Below are positions 30,078 through 31,634 of a DNA stretch of 31,634 bases, in pieces. This DNA is from a virus: IMG/VR virus record IMGVR_UViG_3300029915_000104; one strand, written 5' to 3'. The notes under the pieces are model-generated. The model was given only the letters and a program-made list of their open reading frames with translations, made no database searches and was not told the origin of the DNA. A program made the translations under genes and the position numbers. Positions within the stretch are counted from its first letter, which is position 1; each line of letters begins with the position of its first letter.

Positions 30078-31634
30078 ATGCAGAAGATCAAGTATATTAC
30101 GAACCGTGAACTCCTGTCTGAGATACACAATTCGAAGAACAGCTATTGCAGTTACTTGGCGCCGGAATTCGCCAATTTTGATATGATCGTGGCCTCGTTG
30201 GATGATGTCACTCCGGAACTGTTTCAGCAGGCGGTCGAGAGCAAGGCGTCAAAACTGTCCAGCAAGACCTTAACTATTGATCCGGCCAGTCTCGATCGCG
30301 AGGAAATCGTCATTCGGCTGATGTCGGATACGCATCTGCCAGCGGAGGCGGATGAGAAACGCCGCAAGGCGTCCAGCACTGGCGGCTGGGTGGTGAAGAC
30401 CAACTTCCCGCCATTCCGCCATTTCATCCTGCGGGAAGGCAAACCGGTCGAGGTCGGCCGGTCGCATTGGCATGGCGGCTTGGAGAACGGCAATTTCACC
30501 CTCGAATGCGGCGGGATGTCAAACCGCTTGGCCAATATGTTCATCCTGCTGGTTGAACGTTACTCGCGCGGTGGTAGCTGGCGCAACTATTGTGTAGATC
30601 AAGAAACTGAAGCATTGACTCAGCGAGGCTGGCTGAATGGCGACGAGATCAATGAAGATGATATCATTCTGTCCTATGAAAATGGTCAGATGAAATGGTC
30701 GAAGATCAAGTCGATCTTCCGGAACGACGAGTATGATGGCAAGATGTTCCATCTTACCGTGACAGGCATGGACGCACTGGTGACGCCACACCACAAGTTC
30801 GTTACGGATAAGGGGTTGAAAGAGGTCGAGCTTCTGATCGAAAAAGATCGTTTGGTCTTGATAGGCGATCCGGTCGCCGACACGGATACAACCTATACTG
30901 ACGAATTCGTTGAACTGATTGGATGGACTGTAACCGAAGGAAGTTACTATTTCGAGGAAGGACGCAACTACTGCCGGGTGTCTATTTCCCAGAACGAAGG
31001 TGCAAAAGCTGATCGTATCCGCGCATGTCTGAATTCTCTAAAAAGCACCTTTAGCGAGACCCATCGACCGGTCGCAAGCGGCACTTTGGTAGTGTTCAAT
31101 TTGACCAAGGAGATGTGTGACAAAATCCTAGCGGTAGCCGAAGGTCGCGTTCTTTCCATGCCCTTCATCCTGACGCTGTCACAAGCGCAAAGAGAAATCT
31201 TGATCAACACGATGGTGGACGGTGACGGAAGTCGGACTAAAACGTTTGGCGCCGATAACAAGTATGGCGGCTATCTCAGATACAGCCAGAAAGACAAAAA
31301 GCATCTCGACGCCTTTCTGGCCCTATGCACGCTCGCCGGTCATCGCACCACGACACGCCTACGAGACGATATCGTGTCGTTTGGTGTTCCGACCTCGATC
31401 AACGAAGTCAACATCTTTTCAAAGGCGCACGATATTTTCCGGCACTCGATGGTCGAAAACATCGATTTCCACGGCGGTAAAAGAAACGGGAGGGCGCATC
31501 CTGGCAAGGCTTATCATCCAAACGAACCGACCGTAAACTACAAAGGCAAAATCTGGTGCCCAGAAACCGAATACGGCTCCTTTATGTGTCGCAGAAATGG
31601 CACAGTGTATCAAAATGGCAATACCTACCTCGAC
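30078..31634 (+). CDS. gp55-like late sigma factor gene interrupted by an intein (precursor). It is partial and runs off the 3' end of the window. The ORF track missed it for lack of a stop.
   Basis: ATG at 30078, with 519 codons open to the window end. The N-terminus KYITNRELLSEI resembles T4 gp55 NNKELLQAI. NRLANMFILLVERYSRGGSW resembles gp55 [23 protein letters not shown]. The extein breaks after ...SWRNY at residue 171. The gp55 sequence was recalled from memory. Confidence 0.5.
   Translation, partial: MQKIKYITNRELLSEIHNSKNSYCSYLAPEFANFDMIVASLDDVTPELFQQAVESKASKLSSKTLTIDPASLDREEIVIRLMSDTHLPAEADEKRRKASSTGGWVVKTNFPPFRHFILREGKPVEVGRSHWHGGLENGNFTLECGGMSNRLANMFILLVERYSRGGSWRNYCVDQETEALTQRGWLNGDEINEDDIILSYENGQMKWSKIKSIFRNDEYDGKMFHLTVTGMDALVTPHHKFVTDKGLKEVELLIEKDRLVLIGDPVADTDTTYTDEFVELIGWTVTEGSYYFEEGRNYCRVSISQNEGAKADRIRACLNSLKSTFSETHRPVASGTLVVFNLTKEMCDKILAVAEGRVLSMPFILTLSQAQREILINTMVDGDGSRTKTFGADNKYGGYLRYSQKDKKHLDAFLALCTLAGHRTTTRLRDDIVSFGVPTSINEVNIFSKAHDIFRHSMVENIDFHGGKRNGRAHPGKAYHPNEPTVNYKGKIWCPETEYGSFMCRRNGTVYQNGNTYLD
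30591..31634 (+). mobile_element. Intein with a LAGLIDADG homing endonuclease, inserted in the gp55-like gene. The C-terminal end lies beyond the window.
   Basis: Cys1 at 30591-30593 opens block A, CVDQETEALTQRGWLNGDEI. Block B reads FHLTVTGMDALVTPHHKFVTDKG, containing TxxH. The two LAGLIDADG motifs are EFVELIGWTVTEGSYY and REILINTMVDGDGSRTK. No C-terminal HN splice junction appears before the window end. Confidence 0.65.

Follow-up and report, generated by a model that had tools for sequence, protein, structure and literature searches.

The 31,634-nucleotide (nt) stretch of IMG/VR virus record IMGVR_UViG_3300029915_000104 analyzed here, which we call the window, ends inside a plus-strand gene for a homolog of phage T4 gp55. 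We conclude, with a probability of approximately 0.82, that this gene encodes the gp55-type late sigma factor of an uncultivated huge phage and that it is interrupted by two mobile LAGLIDADG inteins, both predicted to leave the protein by splicing. A preliminary description, made from the letters of the window, had proposed a single such intein running past the window end. We found the first intein (intein 1) to be complete within the window, and we read a second one (intein 2), together with the rest of the sigma factor, from near-identical contigs that reach further.

Profile, fold, and gene order place the host protein in the gp55 family

The open reading frame (ORF) begins with an ATG at position 30078 and continues for 519 codons without a stop to the window end at 31634, as the preliminary description had read it, and this choice of start codon matches homologs that begin with MQKIKYITN. 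Amino acids (aa) 1 to 171 (30078..30590, plus strand) constitute the N-extein, which was delimited by its PHROGs match, by uninterrupted homologs, and by a family profile compared with chain F of PDB entry 7d7c (7d7c_F), the T4 gp55 chain. In the PHROGs search, these residues matched phrog_12791, "sigma factor for late transcription," at an E value of 2e-40, and the alignment ended precisely where Cys172 opens the insert, with 189 of the 286 profile positions reached. A profile built from 31 intein-less family members recovered 7d7c_F (E 5e-13), followed in the same search and in the same register by region 2 of cyanobacterial SigA (E 0.3 to 0.8); Pfam Sigma70_r2 was matched weakly by six of the 31 members. 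Consistent with the profile search, an AlphaFold2 (AF2) model of the intein-less homolog P0121, with a predicted local distance difference test score (pLDDT) of 92.6, had 7d7c_F as its sole confident fold match in the PDB (Foldseek probability 1.0; root mean square deviation [rmsd] of 1.5 Å; 89 columns; 29% identity). The genes for the gp47 and gp46 recombination nucleases come after the sigma gene in PA5oct, BF, and Synechococcus phage B23. On these three independent lines, i.e., profile, predicted structure, and synteny, the host protein is identified as a gp55-type late sigma factor homolog, with a predicted sigma function at late promoters.

The preliminary description had likened the first 171 residues as a whole to T4 gp55. 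The assignment to the gp55 family stood, and the profile searches that it had proposed as a check pointed to no unrelated family. However, direct similarity to T4 gp55 covered only approximately aa 3 to 23 and 146 to 171. The roughly 120 residues between aa 23 and 146 form a lineage-specific domain, and the bulk of the gp55-like core sits in the C-extein. The N-extein accordingly consists of the lineage-specific N-terminal domain and a sigma-region-2.1-like helix, and it terminates in ..LLVERYSRGGSWRNY. The long-form family to which it belongs measures approximately 275 aa, including an extra N-terminal alpha/beta domain of about 120 to 150 aa that T4 gp55 does not have. We found no PDB fold match for this domain in the Foldseek search with the P0121 model and no match for aa 1 to 171 in Pfam or NCBIfam. 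The spliced sigma factor as a single phmmer query against the PDB likewise gave nothing useful, gp55 being reached by profile only. Separately, within aa 1 to approximately 145 (30078-30500), the His and Cys residues invariant in a four-sequence alignment (A1), namely, H17, C24, H86, H115, and H130, suggest a possible metal site.

Upstream of the sigma gene lies an intergenic region (29969..30077, plus strand; ORF map) that separates it from a divergent, minus-strand baseplate-wedge gene and is the presumed promoter region. The same divergent arrangement was found in Phosso, PA5oct, BF, and the related contig L004.

Intein 1 is complete within the window

Amino acids 172 to 515 (344 aa; 30591..31622, plus strand, like all of the features of intein 1 given below) form an in-frame insert consisting of a Hint splicing domain into which a double-motif LAGLIDADG endonuclease is inserted, as delimited by the reading frame, AF2, Foldseek, and tblastn. 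In tblastn, a query from which the insert had been removed (171 aa plus TYLD) matched 88 jumbo-phage records, and in 86 of them it aligned with an uninterrupted gene at 97 to 100% query coverage; examples are Sinorhizobium phage Phosso, PA5oct, and Serratia BF and Rak2-like phages. The empty alleles read NWRGY/SYLDEM or NYRNY/TYLDEM (slashes mark the junction), and the window reads SWRNY/C...VYQNGN/TYLD; in PA5oct, the uninterrupted junction is ..AACTGGCGTGGATAT/TCATATCTAGATGAAATG.. The expectation that the intein would run off the window and end downstream in His-Asn was not borne out, as the C-terminal junction lies inside the window at nt 31622/31623, is Gly-Asn/Thr, and leaves the last 12 nt of the window as C-extein.

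The motifs quoted in the preliminary description are all present, i.e., Cys172, LVTPHHKFVT with Thr236 and His239, LIGWTVTEGS at aa 280 to 289, and LINTMVDGDGS at aa 375 to 385, and they are not chance resemblances, since they are near-invariant in 121 aligned homologs. All residue counts below are MAFFT column counts over these 121 homologs, which are 44 to 82% identical. Block A (30591..30632) comprises Cys1 (nt 30591 to 30593) and CVDQETEALTQRGW; the Cys is invariant (121 of 121) and occurs as well in all seven members of the wider intein clade, and Thr177 and Ala179 are found in 117 and 120 sequences. Block B (30783..30794) contains the TxxH motif Thr236-Pro-His-His239, of which the Thr and the last His are each present in all 121; the residue at His+2, position B:12, is Phe241 here and is mostly Phe (56) or Leu (55) across the family. 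The first LAGLIDADG motif, LIGWTVTEGS (30915..30944), carries the predicted catalytic acidic residue Glu287 (Glu in 111 and Asp in 3 of the 121) followed by an invariant Gly288, with fold matches to I-DmoI and PI-SceI. The second motif, LINTMVDGDGS (31200..31232), carries the corresponding Asp383 (119 of 121) and Gly384 (116 of 121).

Block F, KIWCPETEYGSFMCRRNG (31548..31601), has Cys494 (nt 31557 to 31559) at position F:4 in place of the Asp of class 1 inteins, the Trp and Cys being conserved in 120 and 119 of the 121 sequences; WCP is kept in six of the seven clade members, with YCA in P1201. Block G and the C-terminal junction, TVYQNGN/T (31602..31625), contain the terminal Asn515 (nt 31620 to 31622; Asn in 117 and Gln in 2 sequences) and the +1 residue Thr516 (nt 31623 to 31625; Thr in 91 and Ser in 27). 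The penultimate residue is Gly514 (Gly in 107, Ser in 7, and His in 3), and position G:5 is occupied by Asn513 (Thr in 102 and Ser in 8). The C-extein starts with TYLD, its first four residues (31623..31634), as expected from the homologous NYRNY/TYLDEM and NWRGY/SYLDEM, and continues as TYLDEMRSHALVQL... in contig L013.

An AF2 model of intein 1 made with the family alignment had a pLDDT of 95 and a predicted template modeling score (pTM) of 0.92. Its best PDB fold matches in Foldseek were all endonuclease-bearing inteins (TliVMA, PI-PfuI, PhoVMA, PI-SceI, and PI-PkoII; E 1e-14 to 1e-8), and these were followed by the monomeric LAGLIDADG enzymes I-DmoI and I-Tsp061I (E 2e-6 to 2e-5). The secondary structure of the model contains a duplicated alpha-beta-beta-alpha-beta-beta-alpha fold at intein residues 104 to 275, and a profile of the family (A5) aligned the endonuclease region to TliVMA and 2dch. 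The proposal of a Hint domain with a LAGLIDADG endonuclease is thereby supported by a predicted fold of the PI-SceI type. Intein 1 shares with the five solved inteins the Hint horseshoe and the inserted double-LAGLIDADG endonuclease (Foldseek probability 1.0; template modeling score of approximately 0.55 to 0.64), whereas it is only 9 to 16% identical to them, and they are canonical class 1 inteins with the block F Asp and the penultimate His, residing in archaeal or yeast hosts (VMA, ribonucleotide reductase [RNR], and Pol).

Among the features by which inteins are recognized, we found the position-1 nucleophile, the block B TxxH, the terminal Asn with a +1 Thr, the Hint fold, and the restoration of colinearity upon removal, and we did not find the penultimate His, which is replaced by Gly514. 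A penultimate His is common in inteins and not obligatory. A penultimate Gly has been documented as functional in phage inteins (PMC5050341).

The whole gene encodes a 944-aa precursor with a second intein

The 1017-aa baseplate-hub protein of the window was found with an identical sequence on 21 contigs. Three of these, L013 (ENA, 259 kb), L014 (JGI, 91 kb), and L015 (Logan), are 99.96 to 99.99% identical to window positions 13226 to 31634 and reach beyond the window end. Their sigma gene (L013:3339-6173, minus strand) has a product of 944 aa, of which the first 519 are identical to the window ORF, with one synonymous difference at nt 30701. It consists of the N-extein (aa 1 to 171), intein 1 (aa 172 to 515, 344 aa), a middle extein (aa 516 to 554; TYLDEMRSHALVQLAQVGLQFNEARSDNPFSFYTQIIKN), intein 2 (aa 555 to 879, 325 aa; L013:3537-4511, minus strand), and a last extein (aa 880 to 944; CFRRVLNIERR...KRGRKPKSAVH), so that 71% of the precursor is intein. 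The near-identical contigs thus supplied what the preliminary description had looked for downstream, namely, a splice junction (Asn/Thr) and the remaining gp55 regions. It had mentioned neither a second intein in the gene nor that this combination of intein and site is widespread rather than unique.

Intein 2 (CLSGSTMILT..TLDHGW..LIYGDGS..LRGWLAADGC..RVYCPSVPTT..GIHSFN) splits the C-extein at IIKN/C...HSFN/CFRR. It has Cys1, Trp at B:12 (TLDHGW), a block F Cys (RVYCP), a +1 Cys, and the LAGLIDADG motifs LIYGDGS and LRGWLAADGC; its LAGLIDADG_3 score is near threshold (21.9 bits versus a 22.5-bit cutoff), and the RNR gene of Thermobifida phage P318 contains a homologous insert (E 1e-12). Removal of both inserts leaves 275 aa with the junction peptide ..SWRNYTYLDEMR.., and this product aligns with the intein-less P0121 at 60% identity (E 9e-129), colinearly and with no gaps at either junction. 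The last 56 to 60 nt of the window had no exact match in IMG/VR or JGI metagenome contigs, and a megablast of the region against GenBank phages returned no match.

Intron-split genes and free-standing homing endonuclease genes are frequent in jumbo and huge phages (PMC12880540), so that an artifact or another kind of element, i.e., a misassembly, a group I intron with an endonuclease ORF, or a gene split in two by a free-standing endonuclease gene, had to be considered. The Hint termini and the exact in-frame junctions speak against these. Misassembly and a split gene were ruled out, as the 944-codon frame is continuous and identical in three independent assemblies. A group I intron or other RNA element was also rejected, with no Rfam family at threshold in 29600-31634; the only match at an E value of 1 or below was a chance one to SECIS_3 (20.7 bits versus a gathering score of 63). 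We regard this explanation as effectively refuted.

As a separate observation, the 944-aa product ends in a basic, AT-hook-like K(R)RGRKPK tail (..KGKRGRKPKSAVH) that is present in most family members. T4 gp55 has a sliding-clamp-binding motif in that region, from which a basic tail would not be expected, and the tail hints at a different DNA tethering of the sigma factor. Homologs of gp33 and gp45 were not found by the authors of the CBB phage study in a related phage (PMC5259590).

Intein 1 falls into a loop and intein 2 into a helix of the gp55-like core

In the family-profile register, intein 1 is inserted after the equivalent of T4 gp55 Tyr63, for which the SigA counterpart is RGL/SFQDLIQEG. 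In the P0121 model, the insertion point falls into the loop between helix 153-167 and helix 178-195, which are sigma-region-2.1-like and 2.2-like, respectively, and TYLD starts the helix equivalent to gp55 H3. According to a cryo-electron microscopy study of the gp55 open complex, H3 attaches to the beta' clamp helices through E70, D74, and E77, and RNA polymerase (RNAP) binding is disrupted when these residues are substituted (PMC7892883). The E70 equivalent is the Glu of the near-invariant (S/T)YxDEM motif, four residues past the splice site and at least 90% conserved; the D74 and E77 equivalents in this protein are His and Val, again in the family-profile register. Intein 2 interrupts the helix aligned with gp55 H4, the promoter-recognition helix. 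From these positions, we reasonably infer that the precursor would be inactive as a sigma factor and that late transcription would need both splicing reactions.

Compared with T4 gp55 (7d7c/7d7d), the window protein has homologous sigma-region-2-like helices (E 5e-13; rmsd 1.5 Å), keeps the E70-equivalent Glu in DEM, and has relatives with the same neighboring gp47/gp46 module. On the other hand, T4 gp55 has 185 aa and is intein-free, whereas the window family has approximately 275 aa after splicing and the extra N-terminal domain, carries the basic KRGRKPK tail where T4 gp55 has its sliding-clamp-binding motif, and does not conserve the D74 and E77 equivalents.

Predicted splicing chemistry

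The near-invariant block F Cys (..WCPETEYG..) lies 21 residues ahead of the terminal Asn, and the MP-Be DnaB class 3 intein has the same 21-residue spacing (C320-N341; PMC2807308); the F:4 register used here comes from sequence alignment and spacing, not structural superposition. Common to the wider clade are Cys1, a block F [W/Y]C, and (T/S)GN/S, T, or C at the C-terminal junction, and a Trp at His+2, completing the WCT triplet, is found in four of the seven clade members and in intein 2. The best PDB sequence match of the clade is the class 3 AceL NrdHF intein (E 2.6e-7), an experimentally verified class 3 intein with Met at B:12 and no C-terminal histidines (PMC7891396).

These features raise the possibility of class 3 chemistry, in which the block F Cys (Cys494, intein residue 323), and not Cys1, would attack the N-terminal junction first. 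Such a course would fit the conservation of Cys F:4 (119 of 121; 7 of 7 in the clade), the Thr at G:5 in 102 and the Ser or Thr at +1 in 118 of the 121 sequences, both as in class 3 inteins (PMC2807308), the Trp at B:12 in the clade relatives and intein 2, and the likeness to AceL NrdHF, which also lacks C-terminal histidines and has Met at B:12. There is also precedent, as three of the 37 WCT inteins known in 2010 had Ser1 or Cys1 (PMC2807308). However, Cys1 is invariant (121 of 121; 7 of 7 in the clade), as would be unexpected for a dispensable residue, the Phe or Leu at B:12 in the gp55 branch is typical of class 1, the window copy has Asn and not Thr at G:5, and the register of F:4 is not structurally anchored. 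We consider class 3 chemistry possible, if doubtful. We did not file intein 1 as class 3 because three of the four sequence features of that class fail in the window copy, which has Cys1, Phe at B:12, and Asn at G:5; the fourth, Cys at F:4, is present. The known class 3 (WCT) inteins MP-Be DnaB, MchDnaB1, MsmDnaB1, and AceL NrdHF resemble it in the F:4 Cys, the G:5 Thr or Ser, the +1 Ser or Thr, and their phage-associated lineage, and differ in lacking, by definition, a position-1 nucleophile, whereas the intein 1 family has an invariant Cys1 and Phe or Leu at B:12. As judged from sequence, then, these inteins appear to belong to a WCT-type lineage retaining Cys1, with both inteins class 3-like at F:4.

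Distribution, mobility, and selection

More than 120 metagenomic protein clusters have intein 1 at this position. The whole ORF as a query returned 423 proteins, and each of the 120 among the matches listed is such a carrier (44 to 82% identity); these carriers are mostly 600 to 630 aa, and some lie on contigs of up to 638 kb. With the N-extein alone as the query, 511 relatives were retrieved from 1.84 billion representatives. Among the best 150 of these 511, about 30 (approximately 20%) have the site-a intein and at least 89 have none, with both kinds interleaved by similarity rank; the top match, P0121, is intein-less, as are all 88 cultured jumbo-phage homologs. Across the family, the sigma gene is a multisite intein target with three insertion sites. 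We found mini-inteins (P0135 and P0220), a decayed endonuclease (P0129), an allele with the site-b intein only (P0149), a third site holding a mini copy of intein 1 (P0018), and a three-intein protein in which two of the inteins adjoin in tandem (P0127; ..HSHN/CVAYDTMILT..).

Among the closest known systems is gp55 (gp289, QGT54902.1) of the Synechococcus phages B23 and B3 (MN695335 and MN695334; Kyanoviridae). It carries a 47%-identical full-length intein at the homologous site (KPNFANY/CVDSSTEALT...VYLTGN/SYKEDL) with the LAGLIDADG motifs, Cys1, WCP, and TGN/S, and gp47 and gp46 are next in the gene order. The host protein, in contrast, is a short T4-type gp55 (approximately 164 aa when spliced) without the long N-terminal domain, and its intein is the only one. 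The similarity of the intein is decoupled from the divergence of the host gene, since the B23 intein is alignable at this identity and the N-exteins are not (BLASTP E 0.21). Within the family, the mean identity is 55% for the intein and 45% for the N-extein. In GenBank, the B23 gene (MN695335.1, 174984-176498; L006:3791-5305; 504 aa) is a "hypothetical protein" with the note "T4-like gp55" and an unannotated intein, and the same gap exists in B3.

Further tblastn matches came from actinophages, in genes for the portal, TerL, ThyX, and DNA polymerase. The inteins of the same clade in the portal proteins of Gordonia phages Belphegor, Woes, and Hail2Pitt, TerL of GMA3 and GordTnk2, ThyX of Corynebacterium phage P1201, and gp135 of Bixzunavirus Pinkcreek align end to end with intein 1 at 23 to 28% identity (E down to 5e-29). 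They likewise have Cys1, [W/Y]C, (T/S)GN/S, T, or C, no penultimate His, and a LAGLIDADG endonuclease. They differ in that their hosts serve in packaging, replication, or nucleotide metabolism and that most keep the B:12 Trp that is replaced by Phe or Leu in the gp55 branch. The P1201 ThyX record carries the annotation "contains hypothetical intein."

The GC content at third codon positions (GC3) of the intein is 0.576, compared with 0.708 ± 0.031 and a minimum of 0.625 in 588 equal-sized windows of neighboring genes; the composition of the intein is foreign. The proportions of nonsynonymous (pN) and synonymous (pS) differences from the 82%-identical L004 are 0.11 and 0.71 for the intein, 0.13 and 0.75 for its endonuclease part, and 0.075 and 0.54 for the N-extein, and with synonymous divergence (dS) saturated, the ratios of nonsynonymous to synonymous divergence (dN/dS) are rough. 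Purifying selection on the intein and the endonuclease is clear. Taken together, the distribution, allele stages, selection, composition, and transfer fit a mobile homing intein.

Several points weigh against the conclusion of two active, mobile inteins. Besides the roughness of the dN/dS values, several canonical assisting residues are missing, as intein 1 has neither the penultimate His nor the His and Asp of block F, and G:5 is Asn in the window copy in place of the prevailing Thr. Curated models score weakly (PF14890 [Intein_splicing] at E 0.02 to 0.04, against a 35.8-bit cutoff, and TIGR01445 at E 0.096), and intein 1 as a single phmmer query had no match in the PDB, the solved inteins being reached by profile only. 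The curated hidden Markov models (HMMs) were nearly blind to the insert, and we therefore used PHROGs, family profiles, and structure prediction instead. Furthermore, intein 2 and the C-extein come from the near-identical contigs and not from the window itself, and the inactivity of the precursor is deduced only from the position of the inserts.

Some of these points, namely, the three missing residues and the subthreshold HMM scores, would also suit a dead or domesticated insert, that is, a pseudogene or a sigma factor functioning with the 344-aa insertion (plus the 325-aa one) permanently in place. However, all residues of the splicing chemistry are kept and near-invariant in the 121 sequences, pN is far below pS, and one insert lies at the clamp-helix-binding helix and the other in the promoter-recognition helix. 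The same deviations, moreover, occur in experimentally active phage inteins (PMC5050341 and PMC7891396). We consider a dead insert very unlikely.

Genomic neighborhood

The genes around the sigma gene in the window encode baseplate and virion proteins of a large myovirus. In the gene at 26541-29657 (minus strand), the window lacks 29 bp (TGGTATTGCCCGACAAAGCCGAGGCCGTT) at approximately 26672, between short direct repeats, compared with L013 to L015. Through the resulting frameshift, a virion structural gene of 1136 aa is read as an ORF of 1038 aa; the missing 29 bp reflect either a true deletion in this variant or a fault of the assembly. A look-up found no exact match for the 1038-aa protein, and the 1017-aa and 140-aa proteins were matched. 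Directly downstream of the baseplate-wedge gene, a giant 3545-aa ORF (6261-16898, minus strand) had no Pfam match; it has 3549 aa in the near-identical contigs. An 840-aa protein encoded at 2906-5428 (minus strand) contains the Major Vault Protein shoulder domain (PF11978; E 4.7e-18; 65.8 bits versus a 25-bit cutoff) and a Vault_3 repeat (E 8e-6) and had no PHROG match. Such a vault-like protein is unusual in a phage genome.

A dual-specificity phosphatase gene (PF00782, DSPc) lies directly downstream of the sigma gene in L013 (2790-3320) and L004 (12312-12848). In L004, a GIY-YIG endonuclease gene is located between the putative gp47-like and gp46-like genes, with a LAGLIDADG-like ORF nearby, which makes this neighborhood rich in selfish elements.

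Discussion

The sigma gene described here would be expressed as follows. Translation would come first, and each intein would then cut itself out by autocatalysis, with Cys1, the block F Cys, or both acting first, the +1 residue (Thr or Cys) next, and the terminal Asn cyclizing last, and the exteins would be ligated. Binding to core RNAP and the directing of late transcription would be expected of the mature, doubly spliced 275-aa protein only. In the DNA of coinfecting phages, intein-free sigma alleles would be cut by the endonucleases, and repair would copy the intein in, a homing cycle that would account for the patchy but wide distribution. The insert boundaries, folds, host homology, conserved catalytic residues, purifying selection, foreign composition, patchy distribution, and restored colinearity are observations, and splicing, endonuclease activity, and the inactivity of the unspliced precursor are what we infer.

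The position of the inteins also raises the question of whether they have been co-opted as a regulatory switch, in which conditional splicing, inhibited, for example, by oxidation of the pair of Cys1 and block F Cys or by temperature, metal, or another signal, gates or times late transcription. Intein 1 is inserted directly at the RNAP-binding surface, is better conserved in the family than the N-extein, and has two invariant active-site cysteines, Cys1 and Cys F:4; in addition, one small regulator here requires two sequential splicing events. A report on Mycobacterium smegmatis DnaB (PMC6195587) describes stress-responsive splicing of two inteins, DnaBi1 and DnaBi2. That protein resembles the sigma factor in carrying two inteins in one essential nucleic-acid-binding protein, and it differs in being a cellular replicative helicase and not a phage transcription factor. 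However, the at least 89 intein-less proteins among the best 150 relatives and all of the cultured jumbo-phage homologs do without the intein, so that the regulatory circuit can dispense with it. Moreover, an ordinary homing cycle fits the distribution, the mini-inteins, the foreign GC3, and the purifying selection that acts on the endonuclease. A co-opted switch thus seems unlikely. In its broadest form, the late switch in a large huge-phage clade and some T4-like cyanophages would be gated by sigma-factor splicing, possibly made sensitive to the redox or metabolic state of the infected cell by the retained pair of Cys1 and block F Cys, with two or three serial splicing reactions acting as a checkpoint or timer and a parasite turned to use; we hold this to be quite unlikely.

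Most cataloged inteins reside in proteins of replication, repair, packaging, and nucleotide metabolism. The preliminary description knew of no report of this host protein, and nothing that we found contradicts it, as a search of open-access full texts turned up no account of a sigma factor, or of gp55, with an intein. A catalog of mycobacteriophage inteins has no transcription factor among the host proteins (PMC5050341), and reviews of jumbo phages mention other intein hosts only. The element is of a well-known kind, and the host protein and the three insertion sites appear to be new. The intein allele itself is already public, in B3, B23, and many metagenomic contigs, where its proteins are named "hypothetical protein" or not at all. 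For annotation, it is relevant that curated intein HMMs miss such inserts and that the proteins are deposited as "hypothetical."

The two inteins are of interest for the regulatory position of their host, for the load of several inteins that so small a protein bears, and for a WCT-type chemistry combined with Cys1. The full, mini, decayed, and absent inteins at the three sites of one small gene offer a natural series for the homing cycle, and B3 and B23 provide a tractable system in which an effect of intein splicing on viral timing could be sought. In the phage of the window, a small sigma factor of 275 aa would arise from a precursor of 944 aa, and the master regulator of late phage development probably depends on two splicing reactions.

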